Virus record (IMG/VR): IMGVR_UViG_3300049460_000121
Span: 75,468-139,467 of that record
Source of the DNA: a virus
Lineage: Duplodnaviria > Heunggongvirae > Uroviricota > Caudoviricetes
Length of the DNA stretch: 64,000 nt
Direction: 5' to 3' (one strand)
The translations under genes were made by a program, and so were the position numbers. The notes beneath the pieces were generated by a model that was not told the DNA's origin, searched no databases, and saw nothing but the letters and a program-made list of their open reading frames with translations. This document shows, in pieces, positions 16,697 through 46,711 of this stretch. How positions within the stretch are numbered: the stretch's first letter is position 1; every line of letters begins with the position of its first letter.

Positions 16697-18682
16697 TTAG
16701 TAGTAGTTGCCACCGCTGTACGGACGGCGACGGCGATCAGCGCTGTCGTCGGAACGATTGCGGCGAGTACGACCGATTTCGCTGGTTGCGTACTGGCTGT
16801 AGCCATCGTGACCGATCGAGCGACGAGTCGACAGACCATCGTTGGACGAAACGTGCGGAGACATCTTCGCACCATCCAGCGAGTCTTGCAGAGCGATCAG
16901 GTAGTCCAGGTCGAAGGCCAGTTGCTCGGCAGTGCCGGTAACGTGCAGACCAGGAACCACTTTACGCAGGATCGCGTAACGCTCAGCCAGGTTGAACTCG
17001 ATCGAACGACGGGTGTCTTCGAAAGTAGCCTGGAAGTCCTGTACCAGGTCCAGGTTCTTCTCGCCAACACGAGTCAGCAACGCAGGGACGTTCCATTCAC
17101 GGATGTCACGGCGGTTCTGGTTCTCGTCCAACCAGGTGCCCAGCAGGGTGCGGCTACCGGTAGTGTAGACCGGACGGTAGTCGTTACCCAGGTTACGCTT
17201 GGCCAACGCATCGCTGAAGCGATTGCCGGTCAGAACGTCTGCCGAAGCATGCAGCAGGTCGATCAAGTCGTCCAGCTCGGTGCCAGGCTCTGCGATCGCG
17301 ATGCGCTCGTAGATGCTCAGTACCCAGGACTTCTCGCCCGAGGATGGAACGGTCATGCCGAACGCGACGTCAGGCTTGACGGTCAGGTCGAGGTAATCGG
17401 CCAGATCGTTGTCGCTGATGTTCGGACCGATGTCCTTGGCTACGCAGGCAGCTTCTTCGTCCGGGTTCATCAGGAACAGATGGCCCAGGGAAGTCAGAGG
17501 CTTGAGACCTTCGGCCAGAGTGGCGCGAGGACGCAGCATGGTTGCCCAGCGGTAGTCGTTGGACTGTTGCACTGCCTGAGCGATCAGGAGTTGTGCCAGT
17601 TCCAGCGAGTACGGGAAGTCGCCCGAGCCAACAGAGTTGATGTTCAACACTGCTTGCCAGAACGGGCTCTCGGTATCACGACCACGACGGCGACGGCCGC
17701 CGAAACGACGCTGTTCGCTTTCGCCCTTCTCGTCGTAGGAGACGAACATGTCCAGGCCGCAGCGGATGTCGCCCATTTTGGTACGGGAGAACAGGTTGTC
17801 TTCGCCGTTCGGCTCGGAGTAGTACAGGTTGGTGGTCACGTCGCTACGAACAGGCAGACCCGAAGTGTCGATGATCTGCTTGCCGGTGTAGTCGAACGCG
17901 ATTTCCAGACGGGAGCCTTTACCCATCTTGTCCGGGCTAACGCGGAACTGCGAGGAACGAGTGCCCGACTTGGCGTCGATCATGTTCTCGCGGAAGCCGC
18001 AGATGGCCTCCATCGCGTTATCGTAGATGTGAGCAACGATCTGCTCCATCTCTTTCTCGGTACGGTGGGTGAAGGTGTCAGCCAGGATAACCTGATTGCC
18101 AACCACACGGGCAGTACCGCCAACGGCCGCTTGAGCCTGATCACGCACGATGTTGATGTACGTTTCGGTCAGGTGATCTTCTGGCAGAACCAGAGCGTCG
18201 AAGGTTTCGCCACGCTCAACCAGCGGACGGGTTTGCACGTCGCCGCTTTGCTCGATCAGCAGGATGTAGGTCAGGGCGTAACGCTCGGCACCGATGGTGG
18301 CCGGCAGAACAACCAACAGGCTGGATTGCGAAGAACGCGCCAGCGAGCCATCCATCGGGATGACCTTGAACAGGTTACGCTTGGTTTCAGCAGGAACGCC
18401 AGGCTTGTCGTAAGTCTTGGCGTTCTCGAAGGTATTAACCAGCAGAGACAGAACCGCATCGCTCAGGCCGCCCATGGATGGACGAGCTTGGAGGCGGGAC
18501 ATGTCAGCGAAGGTCACCTGAGTTTCGCGGTTTTCATCGCGACGGCTGCCACGGCTGCCACGGTCGCTGTCGCGGGAATCACGCTCGTCACGGCTACGAT
18601 CTTCACGCAGTTCGGAACGGGTGTCTTCGCGACGCGGCTCTTTAGCATTGTCCGGGGCGTCGGTTACAAAAGTATCGCTCAT
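16697..18682 (-). CDS. chmA: Chimallin, major phage nuclear shell protein (phiKZ gp54-like)
   Basis: 661 aa, very strong codon bias, immediately upstream of beta'-N; DTSGLPVRSD, LTGNRFS, GTW..RDIR motifs; disordered termini. Confidence 0.88.
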   Translation of the reverse strand: MSDTFVTDAPDNAKEPRREDTRSELREDRSRDERDSRDSDRGSRGSRRDENRETQVTFADMSRLQARPSMGGLSDAVLSLLVNTFENAKTYDKPGVPAETKRNLFKVIPMDGSLARSSQSSLLVVLPATIGAERYALTYILLIEQSGDVQTRPLVERGETFDALVLPEDHLTETYINIVRDQAQAAVGGTARVVGNQVILADTFTHRTEKEMEQIVAHIYDNAMEAICGFRENMIDAKSGTRSSQFRVSPDKMGKGSRLEIAFDYTGKQIIDTSGLPVRSDVTTNLYYSEPNGEDNLFSRTKMGDIRCGLDMFVSYDEKGESEQRRFGGRRRRGRDTESPFWQAVLNINSVGSGDFPYSLELAQLLIAQAVQQSNDYRWATMLRPRATLAEGLKPLTSLGHLFLMNPDEEAACVAKDIGPNISDNDLADYLDLTVKPDVAFGMTVPSSGEKSWVLSIYERIAIAEPGTELDDLIDLLHASADVLTGNRFSDALAKRNLGNDYRPVYTTGSRTLLGTWLDENQNRRDIREWNVPALLTRVGEKNLDLVQDFQATFEDTRRSIEFNLAERYAILRKVVPGLHVTGTAEQLAFDLDYLIALQDSLDGAKMSPHVSSNDGLSTRRSIGHDGYSQYATSEIGRTRRNRSDDSADRRRRPYSGGNYY

Positions 18683-18894: not shown

Positions 18895-19029
18895 ACGAGA
18901 TCCTTCATTCTAGGCAATACCACGATAGACGCAGCATTGGTGCTTGCCCGGTTGTTACACCAGGCTAGTTATTTTACATACTATACACACGAGTATGTAA
19001 ACTTTTACATCATTCAATGGATTACTGAA

Positions 19030-29029: not shown

Positions 29030-29093
29030 GTAAAGCTCCACTATTTAATTGGCGGGATCTGATATGAAGATCCCAGGAAAAGAGGTTATTGCA

Positions 29094-29933
29094 ATGGATC
29101 CCGTGTCGACGGCAATAAATAACATCAAGTTTGAGGTCCCGCGTGAGATCCTGAACCAAGCGTTCATGCCCAAGCGTTATGACCCCACTCGACGTGTCCG
29201 GTATCAAGACAACGTTTTCGCAGCGTCCATCGATGAACTCATCCGCACCATCGTAGTTGAAGGTCGGGTGGCTATCGATGTCAACCTGTTGTCTGGCACC
29301 GAAATGGTTCTCCCACTACAAGCCGCGGTGATGGAACACATCGACCCTTGGAACGTCATCTACCGGTTTGGTAGCGATGTCACCAACGGCCGGCGTATCA
29401 CAGCGGTCTATGAAGTGTTGTACGGTATTACTCAGGGACTCAATGGCAACAACGTCTCTGGATTGACCATGCAGCGCAGCAGCCAAATGCTCAAGGTCGG
29501 TCGGGACATCCTCAACGCCTCGGTTGGCGTGAATACCGCCTCCACCTCTTACTGTCAGTTGGTTGGTCAGAACACCGTGTTGGTGAATGACGTAAACCAG
29601 ATGATCGCTTATGGTGGTTTGCGTTGCCGGTTGTCCCACGAACTGAACTTCAACGACATCAAACCGGTCTACTACCACGCGTTTGGCGAACTGGTGACGT
29701 TGGCCACGAAAGCCTACATCTACAACACCTTGGTTATCGACCTCGATGAGGGCGCTATCAAAGGCGGTGCATCCCTGGGCCGCATCCGTGAGATGGTTGA
29801 CCAGTACGCCGACGCGAACCAGATGTACAAAGAGTACCTGAACACCAAGTGGCAACGAATCGGCATGATGAACGATACCGAAGCGTACCGCAAAGTGATG
29901 AAGCTTGCTCTAGGCGCCAGGCCTAAGTTCTAA
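29094..29933 (+). CDS. Conserved probable virion (neck/head completion) protein
   Basis: SD GAGG, late-type TATG at 29063; LATKAYIYNTLVIDLD..GG..LG motif. Confidence 0.65.
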   Translation: MDPVSTAINNIKFEVPREILNQAFMPKRYDPTRRVRYQDNVFAASIDELIRTIVVEGRVAIDVNLLSGTEMVLPLQAAVMEHIDPWNVIYRFGSDVTNGRRITAVYEVLYGITQGLNGNNVSGLTMQRSSQMLKVGRDILNASVGVNTASTSYCQLVGQNTVLVNDVNQMIAYGGLRCRLSHELNFNDIKPVYYHAFGELVTLATKAYIYNTLVIDLDEGAIKGGASLGRIREMVDQYADANQMYKEYLNTKWQRIGMMNDTEAYRKVMKLALGARPKF

Positions 29934-30598: not shown

Positions 30599-31138
30599 TT
30601 ACGCCCGGAGCAACACCAGCAGTTCGTCGGTGGTGGTCGCGACCTTATAGCCCTCAGTGGAGAGGTACTCTTTGGTGCTACCGAACTCATCGTCTTCAGC
30701 GAGGTAGAGTACATCCGCCTCAGGATCGACGACATCGTTAGGTGTCATGATGGACACCGTCTGAGCCGGTGTCTGGGTAACCGAATCTGCCAGATGTACA
30801 CCGTTGACCACGAGGTTCTGCTCAGCAGGCAGTTGACCGTTACCGACCGCATTTTGCAGGGCGATAGGATCGTGGCCAGAAGATTCCAGGCTAGGCTTGA
30901 CCGCAGGGGTAGGACCATCCTCTTCCCCGATGTCCAGCGTACCGTCACCTTTGATCAGGTAACCGGAGGCTTGCAGTGCCTTACGGACTTCTTCCTTGAC
31001 TGGAACGATCTTGCCCAGTACCGGATCTTCAGTGGTCTTAAGGTCGATCATCGAGCCACCGCTCGAGCGCATACCTGGTTCAGTGGCAGACTTCAGGGAT
31101 TCGAAACTCCCCTTGAGTAGTTCAGCATAATAGGACAT
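30599..31138 (-). CDS. Probable processed head protein
   Basis: Several S-X-E prohead protease sites (SFES, SLES, STEG). Confidence 0.55.
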   Translation of the reverse strand: MSYYAELLKGSFESLKSATEPGMRSSGGSMIDLKTTEDPVLGKIVPVKEEVRKALQASGYLIKGDGTLDIGEEDGPTPAVKPSLESSGHDPIALQNAVGNGQLPAEQNLVVNGVHLADSVTQTPAQTVSIMTPNDVVDPEADVLYLAEDDEFGSTKEYLSTEGYKVATTTDELLVLLRA

Positions 31139-31499
31139 GAATAGACCCTTGAGTCAGTGAGTTATGAATTCGTACGGTTTACCACCGCACTCATCTTATT
31201 CCAATCTATAAAGAGCATAGAGTCTGGGCCTACTACCCAGACTCTCTTACGGCTAAATAGAATTTAAGTATTCTGTAATATTTTACAACCCTATTAGCGC
31301 CTGCGGCGCTATATAGATAATCTAGTCTAACGGCGTTCGCTACGCTCTCTGGCCAGACTAGATTGAGTTATGCCTCATCCACTCCATCCCCCGGTATATC
31401 CTCATCGCTTCGCTCGAGTCTATACCACCCCCTTCCTCGCCTTCTCCAGGTTGAAAAGAGGTGAAACATACTATCTAGCCAACCGTGTCATTATTTACA
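31139..31499. other. Non-coding hairpin cluster, candidate replication origin / ssDNA structural element
   Basis: Four inverted repeats, GNA triloops on the minus strand, AT-rich tract, dyad TGTAATATTTTACA. Confidence 0.45.
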
Positions 31500-31542
31500 C
31501 AAAAAAAAGAAAGACAGGAGAGGGGTTGGCCCTCCCCTCCTG
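31500..31542 (-). terminator. Intrinsic terminator
   Basis: CAGGAGAGG..CCCTCCTG hairpin with adjacent A8 tract. Confidence 0.75.
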
Positions 31543-31555
31543 CCCTGCCTAGCCC

Positions 31556-32245
31556 TTAACGGGCTCGACGCGAGTTCCGCTCATCGCGCTCGTGACGTGG
31601 CGACACGCGTTGCATGTCCTCACGAGAGCTGTTGCGGTGAAGTGCTGGCATCCAACGTTCGCCCCGCGAAGGGCTGTCGTTGCGGTGATCGCCGTAGACG
31701 GCTTCGATGGCCAGTTCTTTGATCTGTTGCGGAGTGGCCTGGATGTTGCCGCCGAGACGACTGATCAGACCTTCAGTGAGGATTTCTTCCTGACCTTCCA
31801 GCGCGTACCAGACACCGAGGTCCAGCAGACCGCCGATGTCGTCATTCTGACCGTCTTCGATCAGCAGAGGACGCAGACGCGACGCGTAGAAGTCCAAGAA
31901 GTAGGAAACCTCCACTTCATCGATGTCGCGGATGGCGTGAAGTACCGTCTGCATCTGGAAGATGTCGAAGATCAGGGCGTGAGCCATGTTCTCCAAGAAC
32001 ACCTTCCGGACGCCAGCCACTTCCACGAATGTGGTGAAGGTGGACTCAGCCTGAGGTTGTTCGGCCGCAGTCCGGCTACGGACACCGAGGACGCGCTCAC
32101 CCAGACTGGCATCAGCACCAGGCTTGGCGGCCGCTTTATCGGCAGCCGATTTTGGACCAGGTTTAGCGCCTGGCTTAGGGCCTGGCTTGACGCGTTCTTT
32201 TGCGTCAGCAGCTTTAGCAGGTGTAGCGGTTGTCTTGCCAGCCAT
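31556..32245 (-). CDS. Hypothetical protein with KPG(P/A) N-terminal repeats and R/D-rich tail
   Basis: 229 aa, SD AAGGAG. Confidence 0.75.
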   Translation of the reverse strand: MAGKTTATPAKAADAKERVKPGPKPGAKPGPKSAADKAAAKPGADASLGERVLGVRSRTAAEQPQAESTFTTFVEVAGVRKVFLENMAHALIFDIFQMQTVLHAIRDIDEVEVSYFLDFYASRLRPLLIEDGQNDDIGGLLDLGVWYALEGQEEILTEGLISRLGGNIQATPQQIKELAIEAVYGDHRNDSPSRGERWMPALHRNSSREDMQRVSPRHERDERNSRRAR

Positions 32246-33586: not shown

Positions 33587-34846
33587 ATGAGCAACGTCTT
33601 GCCGTTTGCAAAGGCCGGAGCGCCTTGCGTCAACAGTACCTTTGAGAAACACTGTTCTCACATCATTTTTGACGTGAAGTTTCTTACAAAGGTAAAAGTC
33701 TACGAGCAGCAGTTCGTAAACAAGAACGACACACACATCGCGTTCTTCGGCGGCAACCTCATGGGGGTTCATCCAGTTCGGTTTAAAGACGAAGATCGCA
33801 ACCGCTGGTTCAACGAAGTGATGGATGCGGACGAAGATTCGTTGGAGGATGATCTCCACGCCCTGACCGCGATCTTGCCACACCGCCACGTTTCCAGTGA
33901 CGTGATGAACCTGTCGTGTTTCTGGATGGCTCACAAGTTCCTGTCCAGTCCACACCTGACTCCTCTGCAACAGCATGAAGGGGCCATGGCCTCTATCCTG
34001 GTGGTGCAGTACAAGTTCATCACTTCGATCCTCACCGATTGGTTCCGCTACAACGCTGACCCGATTATCGCACAGGCGACCTACGCCGCCCTCAACAAGC
34101 GTTTCGGCTTGAAGGTGGCAGGTAGTTGGGGTGCCCTCCTGCGTATCCGTGCTGCGGCCGTAGTGGGTAAAGGTGAGTTACACCATAAAGAGTTGTTGTC
34201 ATTTCTTAACGACGACAAGGTTGTATATATGGTGAACGACACTCAAGGTCGTATCAAGGACATCCTGAAGAACATCCGGGACGTCTTCACCATCGTTAAG
34301 AACAGTCCTGAGATGCAGATCAGGTCCAGCAGCTCCATGATCGAGATGGATGGCGAATTGAAGGTCCGTGATAAGACCCGACTCGTGTCCACCTACATGC
34401 GTTACATTCTGGAGACCCTTCCGGATAAGAACAGCTTCATGGTGCCGGAACTCATCGATGTCATTGCCAAGACCGTCCCCACGATGCCTAAGAGCTCGTT
34501 GCAGGCGACTTTGCAGTACATGAGTGCCAACTCCTCTCCTCGTGCCGACAAAGACGTTCAGCAGCTTTGTACGGTCGTACTGCAACACGCCTTCAATTAC
34601 CTGGCTCGAAATCCTAACGTGATGGAGAACCAGAGTGACATCGGTGGGTTGCTGAAGAAGATGCGTGCTCTCTACCAGGCCAGTCGTACTACCGATCCGC
34701 AGATCATCGAGATGCGGGAACTGGCTGAAGGGATTGCCCGTCGGACTCTCAAGAGCAAGAACGGTGTCCTCATCGCAGCTGTCCGCAACGCAGTACTGCT
34801 GTACATCCTCCTCCGCACTTTCACTATGAAACACTATCGTCAATAA
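33587..34846 (+). CDS. Conserved phiKZ-like protein (probable virion-associated)
   Basis: 419 aa, SD GAGG; FFGGNLMGV, VSSDVMNLS, NDTQGRIK motifs. Confidence 0.75.
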   Translation: MSNVLPFAKAGAPCVNSTFEKHCSHIIFDVKFLTKVKVYEQQFVNKNDTHIAFFGGNLMGVHPVRFKDEDRNRWFNEVMDADEDSLEDDLHALTAILPHRHVSSDVMNLSCFWMAHKFLSSPHLTPLQQHEGAMASILVVQYKFITSILTDWFRYNADPIIAQATYAALNKRFGLKVAGSWGALLRIRAAAVVGKGELHHKELLSFLNDDKVVYMVNDTQGRIKDILKNIRDVFTIVKNSPEMQIRSSSSMIEMDGELKVRDKTRLVSTYMRYILETLPDKNSFMVPELIDVIAKTVPTMPKSSLQATLQYMSANSSPRADKDVQQLCTVVLQHAFNYLARNPNVMENQSDIGGLLKKMRALYQASRTTDPQIIEMRELAEGIARRTLKSKNGVLIAAVRNAVLLYILLRTFTMKHYRQ

Positions 34847-35364: not shown

Positions 35365-35687
35365 TGCATCAGTTCAGTATTCCGTTCAAACAGAAGACGG
35401 CCAACCTCATTGCTCTCGTGGGCGGTGATCATCCTGACTTCACTGACAGCATCGCTGATGTCAAACTGATTGCGGTCAAGGATGCCGAAGGTGAGTTGCT
35501 CGAAACTTCCCACATCGGTTTCAAAGGTGGTCCTATCAAACGTGAAGCCAGCGGCTACACCGTGGACGTAGGACCATTCGTGGTTCGTGTGGACTACCAG
35601 ACTGGTTTGGTAGAGATGTGGGGTGAGACCTTCCAAGACCTGACCCTGGTGCTCGGCGTTACGCTCGAGAACCTGAACCGCCGTTAA
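35364..35687 (+). CDS. Hypothetical protein (107 aa)
   Basis: ATG overlapping the previous stop. Confidence 0.65.
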   Translation: MHQFSIPFKQKTANLIALVGGDHPDFTDSIADVKLIAVKDAEGELLETSHIGFKGGPIKREASGYTVDVGPFVVRVDYQTGLVEMWGETFQDLTLVLGVTLENLNRR

Positions 35688-46393: not shown

Positions 46394-46711
46394 ATGACAG
46401 CATGCGAGCAGTTACATGCAGCGTTACGAGATCTGGAAGCAGACCTCAAGAATTATAAAGTGTATGGCAGTGCACTGGTCACATTGAGCGAAGATAGCTC
46501 ATCTCCTGAGCTACGGGAAATCTATCGCGCGGTGATTGGTCTCAAATGCCGTATACCGGTGTACACGAATGATTTCGATCAGTACAAGATCCCAGAAACG
46601 GGACACGCTGTGTTCGTAATCAAATTGACAGGGATGGTCTACATTCAGACCGTTGTCGGGAAATTGGTGTTGCCGTATGGATCAGGAGTGCTCATCAAGG
46701 GTAAGTTCTGA
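46394..46711 (+). CDS. Hypothetical protein (105 aa)
   Basis: ORF filling the gap before a terminator. Confidence 0.55.
   Translation: MTACEQLHAALRDLEADLKNYKVYGSALVTLSEDSSSPELREIYRAVIGLKCRIPVYTNDFDQYKIPETGHAVFVIKLTGMVYIQTVVGKLVLPYGSGVLIKGKF

Follow-up and report, generated by a model that had tools for sequence, protein, structure and literature searches.

What does a jumbo phage keep in a long interval that holds no gene? The interval in question lies at positions 31139-31555 of a stretch of 64,000 nucleotides (the window), which covers bases 75,468-139,467 of a 267,467-bp IMG/VR virus record rated complete (IMGVR_UViG_3300049460_000121). The source phage is a chimallivirus-type jumbo phage, and the interval is bounded by two minus-strand open reading frames (ORFs), 31556..32245 (229 aa) and 30599..31138 (179 aa). 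An earlier interpretation (the sequence-only reading) had described a cluster of hairpins with GNA triloops here and had taken it for a candidate replication origin, or for a folded single-stranded DNA (ssDNA) signal for priming, packaging or anchoring. We found that the hairpin cluster is most likely a gene for a non-coding RNA (ncRNA), with its own predicted promoter and terminator, and not a replication origin. In our judgement it is likely that this single-copy gene specifies a structured ncRNA of about 255 nt, which represents a new phage RNA family and probably acts as a protein-binding scaffold. One part of the sequence-only reading is supported, namely that the element is functional and that its minus strand folds when single-stranded; an ssDNA signal or origin is not supported.

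The inverted repeats on which that reading was built are all present in the sequence: AGAGTCTGGG/CCCAGACTCT at 31219-31245, the AT-rich dyad TGTAATATTTTACA at 31274-31287, TAGCGCC-TGC-GGCGCTA at 31295-31311, AATCTAGTCT/AGACTAGATT around GCTACGC at 31319-31364 and GGTATA/TATACC around GCTTCGC at 31393-31426. Read on the minus strand, the loops at the tips of the three hairpins are GCA, GUA and GAA, every one closed by C-G. The interval is, as had been stated, the longest gene-free one within the window, if a spurious 60-aa plus-strand ORF is set aside; in relatives, this ORF is broken by T-run indels. A longer gene-free gap of 750 nt, the maximum of the genome by simple ORF tiling, lies outside the window (G000:C1:227523-228272).

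The same locus was found on three IMG/VR contigs and one metagenome contig, and these close relatives are about 78-83% identical to the window over 6 kb. In every pair of close relatives the core (31295-31545) is 93-99% identical, as against 50-85% for the coding flanks. GenBank phages searched by nucleotide (with the interval) and by protein (with the two flanking proteins) gave nothing, so IMG/VR served as the source of relatives. When IMG/VR and metagenomes were scanned for exact motifs, only close relatives came up, plus one chance match (L010). A covariance model (R1) was built from the close clade, and a second one (R2) describes the 5' domain. We fetched 80 loci around relatives of the gene for the core protein phrog_2921 (33587-34846), which matches 290 jumbo-phage records. 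R1 identified 12 elements among the fetched loci, and R2, whose scan covered 81 loci, identified 29. All R1 and R2 matches are on the strand opposite phrog_2921. Those of R2 lie 1.3-5 kb from phrog_2921, and in all of their loci the phrog_2921 protein shares at least about 44% identity with that of the window. There is one copy of the element per genome. The family occupies one syntenic position in a clade of chimalliviruses, between the terminase/phrog_2921 module and PhuZ, with the conserved gene order terminase, phrog_2921, RNA element, PhuZ and with the terminase gene 3-5 kb away from the element.

Two cultured phages extend this distribution. The best phrog_2921 match is that of Pseudomonas phage pPa_SNUABM_DT01 (44.5% identity), and R1 gave a partial match in the 400-nt syntenic gap of DT01. 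There we found ATAGTATG, AAGGGGGU, a 34-nt hairpin with an unrelated stem and the same GAA cap, and then GGGGGAUG; R2 finds this element, which lies on the plus strand at about MW735835 119,350-119,741, once and with 97 bits. Phage EL gave a weak R2 match of 16 bits, with TATATG, a pyrimidine/purine helix, an 11-bp H2 stem and a G5 tract. By eye the match is convincing, and EL appears to carry a diverged homologue. It is unannotated and lies on the plus strand in the 650-nt gap between gp013/gp014 and PhuZ (L105:1500-1730; NC_007623 ~17110-17340). In this homologue the H2 insert is much larger, and there are extra small hairpins that are capped GAA, GAA and GGA, and one UCC. In the RSL2, FLC9 and RP12 groups no element was detected, the syntenic gaps giving terminator-like matches only. 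R2 had no match in the whole genomes of phiKZ, 201phi2-1 and Noxifer, nor did a homologue turn up in the phiKZ gp32-PhuZ region when this was searched with filters off.

The minus strand folds as RNA with z = -5.95, and 0 of 100 shuffled sequences were equally stable. The plus strand gave z = -3.21. In the alignment of the whole element (A7, 8 sequences), 94.4% of the cells are paired, compared with 37-45% when the partners are slid, and 51 of 90 pairs change on both sides, values attained by 0 of 500 shuffles. In the alignment of 20 distinct 5' domains (A10), 86.9% are paired versus 48-61% slid, and 13 of 19 pairs are compensatory. Both alignments had been fitted to the models, and these figures therefore lean towards structure. 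For the middle and 3' domains, R1-fitted alignments and scripts were used; the MAFFT alignments A4 and A8 misplace the subgroup with a short H2 and were excluded from the statistics. With this limit of model-fitted alignments, the helices are compensatory and strand-specific, as a structured ncRNA has to be. The strand is also visible in the pairs themselves. In this genome, about 11 G·U pairs occur on the minus strand, including four in H1, and positions of H1 alternate between C-G and U-G across the family, where the plus strand would hold C·A mismatches. The sense strand has the lower folding energy in 16 of 16 members, by 6-32 kcal/mol, and the lower z in 13 of 16, and this folding strand is the one that bears the TATG motif and the terminators described below.

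The individual helices (Table 1) have retained their pairing while their sequences changed. In H1 of this genome, 4 of 10 pairs are U·G and the apical mini-stem has a GGAGA loop; family-wide, the purine arm ends in GGGGGU, and nearly all members have GG(G)A in the apical loop. Five of eight outer pairs of H1 are changed on both sides in A10, with many C-G/U-G exchanges. The stem of H2 is wholly different in sequence in other members with pairing retained (in A10, 94% of cells paired and 5/5 pairs compensatory). It has 7-11 bp and abuts H1, and its loop, GAA here (31411..31409), is GAA, GUA or GGA across members and always C-G closed. Directly 3' of H2, nearly all members conserve a G5 tract, the pairing of which is uncertain. 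In H4, T-A to C-G and G-C to G·U changes in L003 keep the pairing, the cap GCGUAGC has become GUGUAAC in three close relatives, and 10 of 13 pairs are compensatory in A7; elsewhere in the stems of the close clade, G·U is replaced by A-U or G-C. The middle domains of L070 and L048 also contain a C-GUA-G hairpin. The middle domain of another member (L057:4440-4760, minus strand) has three overlapping GCGUAGC units (GCCGUAGCGUAGCGUAGGG) in place of H4. H5 corresponds to a 6-9 bp hairpin at +135 to +200 in every member. Its stems comprise at least nine different, perfectly complementary sequences, which can be read without an alignment, and its triloop is GCA, GAA or GUA, the exceptions being AUA, AGA and one GUUA tetraloop.

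Thus, hairpins with GNA loops are kept with compensatory changes even in distant relatives: G and A of the loop are retained together with the C-G pair that closes it, and N and the stems vary. This conservation of the GNA cap is the most unusual feature of the family. The search for a syntenic, covarying GNA-triloop structure in relatives, which the sequence-only reading had put forward as a check, was therefore positive. Genome-wide, we found 7 C-GNA-G hairpins with stems of at least 5 bp, versus 7-10 expected. Because such hairpins are not enriched, the cluster is a single-copy feature and not a general signal of this phage.

RNAalifold also proposed a closing stem, P1, that pairs 31471-31480 with 31251-31260 (GGCUAGAUAG with CUAUUUAGCC, 10 bp). 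P1 looks compensatory in L003 and in A7; in a duplex test it was significant only in the closest clade and perhaps in L034, and we rejected it as a feature of the family. Upstream of the predicted start, the 5' arm of P1 overlaps with the predicted promoter core. The complementarity in the closest clade could be a DNA-level feature or be relevant to read-through transcripts.

GNA caps are also central to the rival explanation at the DNA level, in which the hairpins would arise in DNA that is single-stranded or supercoiled and would act as an origin or priming site of the G4/ssiA type, or as a packaging or anchoring site. GCGNAGC mini-hairpins are extraordinarily stable in DNA and occur at the G4 origin, at ssiA of RSF1010 and at the early promoters of N4 (PMC13037366). 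The premise that they are far stabler in DNA than in RNA is found in the same source (PMC13037366). Two or three C-GNA-G triloop hairpins are conserved family-wide, that is, the very motif of the stable DNA mini-hairpins at priming sites, and C-G-closed GNA/GNNA mini-hairpins of the G4/ssi type are present. The stems of H2 and H5 are nearly all Watson-Crick, the element is single-copy, non-coding and within 3-5 kb of the terminase gene, and a 2026 jumbo-phage review names no defined origin. Against this, H1 as DNA would depend on many weak T·G pairs, the opposite strand is unable to fold, the folding z is weaker with DNA parameters (-4.05 vs -5.95), the element is framed by a predicted TATG promoter and by terminators, all of the same strand, and compensatory stem changes would be needless for a double-stranded packaging site. 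Nor is the context at the locus that of a G4/ssi-type origin, as we found no skew extremum or strand switch and no iterons there. Cumulative GC skew, a check that had been proposed with the origin, has its minimum near 62 kb and its maximum near 152 kb, with tiny amplitude, and at 107 kb, where the element lies, it shows no extremum, nor do the genes switch strand. Direct repeats are limited to two chance 7-9-mers, and the genome does not use C-GNA-G hairpins elsewhere. The AT-rich tract occurs only in the sub-clade of the window and coincides with a promoter-type motif. The TATG start, the flanking terminators, the G·U-rich H1, the single copy and the lack of iterons all argue against the inference of an origin or priming site.

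Another way to an origin would be by RNA priming: the G-rich transcript would form an R-loop on its C-rich template and prime the leading strand, as do ColE1 RNA II, T4 ori(uvsY) and mitochondrial LSP/CSB. The transcript would indeed be rich in purines and in G (32-42% G), two G5 tracts in it are conserved, an AT-rich tract follows it in the clade of the window, and the element is single-copy with its own predicted promoter. Yet the compensatory changes in H2, H4 and H5 indicate selection for intramolecular folding, not for a hybrid. Moreover, the skew signal is lacking, a terminator follows the element, and Rfam shows no homology to a known primer RNA. The missing skew or strand switch, the missing iterons, the hairpins that do not recur, the poor folding of H1 in DNA and the framing by transcription signals lead us to regard the DNA-level element as quite unlikely and the R-loop origin as very unlikely. 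The sequence-only reading had itself named expression as an RNA as an outcome that would speak against an origin, and such expression is what the anatomy of the element would predict.

The preferred reading, an ncRNA gene, also draws on predicted transcription signals. In phiKZ, the non-virion RNA polymerase uses late promoters in which the motif TATG is essential, and transcription starts at the G of this motif (PMC7618050, PMC12809450). In the family, 21 of 21 aligned members have TATG without variation, commonly with TAT-N2 before it, and it is also present in EL. Every member has a terminator with a T-run 20-30 nt before TATG and a hairpin + TATGC module downstream. By this sequence match TATG would set the 5' boundary of a chimallivirus promoter-plus-terminator unit, and its 3' boundary would be a predicted terminator before the next promoter. 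At the upstream edge of the conserved block, T1 consists of a GC-rich hairpin (31515-31542) and a T8 run. It is 100% conserved in the close relatives L002, L003, L005 and L011, and a hairpin with a T-run stands at this position in every family member. Between T1 and TATG there is a copy of the motif TGTAA-N4-TTACA, and 20 nt separate its GAC from the G of the start site, a spacing that is kept in L038, L026, L034 and L043. This motif (≤1 mismatch) occurs 11 times in the window versus 0.85 expected. The arrangement motif-N16-ATAGTATG is found both at 31486(-) and at 18996(-), the latter upstream of the gene for a 661-aa protein (16697..18682), which suggests that the motif and TATG may make up a composite promoter of upstream element plus start. 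A scan for sigma-70 promoters found nothing, as expected for a phage that has its own polymerases.

On the 3' side, transcription of the RNA is predicted to terminate at T2, which would be fused to the late promoter that serves the gene for the 179-aa protein. The T2 stem is kept in relatives with a variable loop, and in every member a T2-type hairpin lies 30-100 nt after H5, usually running into (C/T)T(C/T)TATGC. T2 belongs to a genome-wide family of such hairpin + (C/T)T(C/T)TATGC modules, which resemble a terminator joined with a late promoter and may sometimes be bidirectional; intergenic TATG and CATA are equally enriched (~3.4-3.6 per kb vs 1.4 genome-wide). A recurrent GC-rich hairpin module with the base GCATA(A/G)AG...CT(C/T)TATGC is found at 35636, at 31138 and at 9 other gene starts genome-wide. 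Downstream of the T2-type module, family members have an untranslated region (UTR) of 60-90 nt and then the next gene. In the UTR of the 179-aa gene a hairpin GUGCGGU...ACCGYAC (31170-31192) keeps its stem, with G·U here where relatives have G-C, and its loop varies among relatives (GGUAA versus UUACC). The AT-rich dyad H6 would be in the 3' tail of the RNA, provided that T2 is its end. Of H6, GUAAAA-N3-UUAC is kept in L038, L026 and L034, with an exchange of the basal U-A for C-G.

Alternatively, the TATG transcript might read through T2, in which case the element would be a long, cis-acting 5' UTR of the following gene. The U-tract of T2 is weak, and 201phi2-1 and phiKZ often show premature termination and small RNAs (sRNAs) derived from 5' UTRs (PMC11512511). 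In every member, however, the next gene has its own hairpin + TATGC module and its own UTR, and DT01 has a strong hairpin + T-run terminator between the element and the next gene. The downstream genes, moreover, fall into at least seven groups unlinked by BLAST and differ even between near-identical elements. We consider such a leader improbable.

Is the element, on the other hand, a small gene for a protein? No ORF is common to the members on either strand, and the unit has no conserved reading frame. An ORF from the ATG inside TATG would have 4-45 aa, and its frame shifts between near-identical relatives; a small protein from this start was rejected.

The preferred explanation, a trans-acting ncRNA, may be put as follows. 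The non-virion RNA polymerase would initiate at the invariant TATG on the minus strand (G31467), assisted in the sub-clade of the window by the upstream TGTAA-N4-TTACA element. The transcript would fold into H1, H2, the G-rich linker, H4 and H5, and end at hairpin T2 near 31212. The RNA may then work in trans as a scaffold or decoy, with its two or three C-GNA-G hairpins and exposed G/GGA-rich stretches as candidate binding sites for one or more proteins. A constant loop G and A with a closing C-G on stems that drift is the pattern expected of repeated protein-recognition sites, or of docking loops similar to GNRA loops.

The exposed GGA motifs raise the possibility that the RNA is a sponge that mimics RsmY/RsmZ and binds RsmA/CsrA, a repressor of translation in the host. 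P. aeruginosa has the Gac/Rsm system, and the cultured hosts of DT01 and EL are Pseudomonas aeruginosa. Each member has 3-10 GGA motifs in its first 125 nt (mean 6.9), and the apical loop of H1 keeps GG(G)A in nearly all members. The mean, however, compares with 4.7 expected per 125 nt, a ~1.5-fold excess that is not significant in most members, and many of the motifs are inside predicted helices. RsmY, RsmZ, CsrB and CsrC of Rfam have no match in the core, the lone CsrC match being on T1, and a sponge would leave the conserved GNA triloops unexplained. We see it as a long shot.

The RNA might also be an integral trans-acting part of a machine built by the phage, for example a packaging part similar to prohead RNA (pRNA) that docks at the nuclear shell, or a ribonucleoprotein of the phage nucleus, with the GNA hairpins as binding sites of subunits. 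This idea, which we hold to be unlikely, is compatible with the single copy, the late-type TATG, the fixed place between the terminase/structural module and PhuZ and a conservation above that of the neighbouring proteins.

Several points weigh against an ncRNA gene and its proposed role. The start site and the 3' end of the RNA are predictions only, T2 has no clean U-tract, so that read-through into the next gene is possible, and the closing stem P1 of RNAalifold fails outside the closest clade. The pair counts in A7 and A10, which were fitted to models, are inflated towards structure. C-GNA-G triloops are the hallmark of very stable DNA mini-hairpins and have only moderate stability in RNA, and the almost purely Watson-Crick stems of H2 and H5 would form in DNA too. 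Finally, there is no Rfam family match, so function has to be read from the anatomy alone. Over the 64-kb window no Rfam family matched at gathering thresholds, and Rfam 15 at E<=10 over 31100-31600 gave only terminator-hairpin noise (mir-like, and the 3' hairpin of CsrC on T1), far below gathering. The searches for transfer RNA and transfer-messenger RNA were negative.

Table 1. Parts of the element and related sequence motifs (window positions unless noted)
Feature	Position	Strand	Description
T1	31500..31545	minus	Predicted intrinsic terminator of the upstream 229-aa gene (terminator scan)
TGTAA-N4-TTACA copy, TGTAAATAATGACA	31486..31499	minus	Probable upstream promoter element
ATAGTATG	31467..31474	minus	Contains the predicted promoter core TATG (31470..31467); predicted start G31467
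H1	31427..31462	minus	ACCUCUUUUC (5' arm, rich in pyrimidines) paired with GGAAGGGGGU (3' arm, rich in purines); RNAalifold
H2	31393..31426	minus	Hairpin GGUAUA...UAUACC with GA/GA internal loops and apical GC-GAA-GC
G-rich stretch GGGGGAUGGAGUGGAUGAGGCAU	31365..31392	minus	Family consensus G3-6, then several GG/GGG runs, GAUAGG
H4	31319..31364	minus	13-bp outer stem around GC-GUA-GC, GUA loop at 31343..31341; variable middle domain of the family
H5	31290..31317	minus	UAGCGCC-GCA-GGCGCUA (31295-31311) with a short basal extension
H6 (AT-rich dyad)	31273..31288	minus	Second TGTAA-N4-TTACA copy; probable upstream promoter element of the 179-aa gene
T2	31216..31245	minus	10-bp hairpin (31219-31245), 3' arm enters TATG (31219..31216); terminator-like by scan
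5' UTR of the 179-aa gene	31139..31215	minus	Outside the RNA element
TGTAA-N4-TTACA copies	16597, 18881, 18996, 27610, 30590, 31274, 31486, 43252, 43401, 49417, 52116		All copies in the window
(A)ATACATTA(T/C) examples	9420, 33537, 49349; genome 201471		Probable further promoter class

The genome contains other recurrent signals. The sequence (A)ATACATTA(T/C) is present 12-132 nt upstream of start codons in 8 regions versus 0.66 expected and is probably another class of promoter. TTTATAG is found 5-28 nt before start codons, for example at window position 46394 and at genome positions 12243, 46046 and 212355, and TATAG is 4.5-fold enriched in upstream regions. A TTATAGA-like sequence follows H5 in members of the DT01 type and T2 in this genome. 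Neither the 229-aa nor the 179-aa flanking protein had a match in Pfam, PHROG or GenBank phages, and tblastn gave zero matches for them in GenBank phages, though DT01 carries the element. A 294-aa ORF at window positions 29049-29933 (plus strand) matches Pfam DUF7484 (E = 4.8e-76).

Nucleus-forming jumbo phages are intensively studied for their cell biology and for therapy, while knowledge of their ncRNAs is almost nil; the 2026 jumbo-phage review has one sentence on them, and our limited literature search for chimallivirus ncRNAs found nothing relevant. Structured phage ncRNAs are a known kind of molecule, and this family appears to be new as judged from Rfam 15 and that search. It stands out by its length, its several helices, its strong covariation and a conservation above that of the surrounding proteins, and its position is held across several genera, including the cultured P. 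aeruginosa phages DT01 and EL. A search for a protein partner could start from the repeated C-GNA-G hairpins, which offer it an unusual and precise point of attack. At the same time, the replication origin of these phages, still undefined, loses a tempting but unsupported candidate.

Among known systems, RsmY, RsmZ and CsrB resemble the element in their multiple hairpins, several GGA motifs, terminator end and Pseudomonas hosts; they differ in that the core has no Rfam match and Rsm RNAs have no GNA triloops. The pRNA of phi29 is a phage-encoded, structured, trans-acting ncRNA that is part of a machine, and its gene is near packaging and structural genes. By analogy the element may be similar, as a structured phage ncRNA of 120-250 nt with a locus near packaging genes, although sequence and structure do not match. 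With the GCGNAGC mini-hairpins of DNA it shares C-G-closed C-GNA-G triloops on short stems (PMC13037366), but its loops are on the sense strand of a unit that runs from TATG to a terminator, beside a G·U-rich helix. Hairpin promoters of the N4 type have a 5-7 bp stem and a 3-nt loop and serve a virion single-subunit RNA polymerase repeatedly as early promoters. Their shape is found only in H5 (7-9 bp stem, 3-nt loop), and such hairpins do not recur in the genome (7 vs 7-10 expected). Chimalliviruses transcribe with multisubunit polymerases and not with an N4-type enzyme (PMC7598289).

The closest comparison within the jumbo phages is with the sRNAs of phiKZ and 201phi2-1, intergenic and 5'UTR-derived, which were mapped by ONT-cappable-seq (PMC11512511). 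These two phages, for which transcriptomes exist, lack the element, and R2 finds no homology to it in either genome. Their sRNAs are <250 nt and mostly much shorter, whereas the element has ~255 nt, with several covarying helices. At least one sRNA unit of the phiKZ/201phi2-1 type is positionally conserved across genera (PMC11512511); it is upstream of a gp182-type tail gene, whereas the element is between phrog_2921 and PhuZ. What the element and these sRNAs have in common is their organization as short non-coding units, in which a phage promoter is closely followed by a terminator (PMC11512511).

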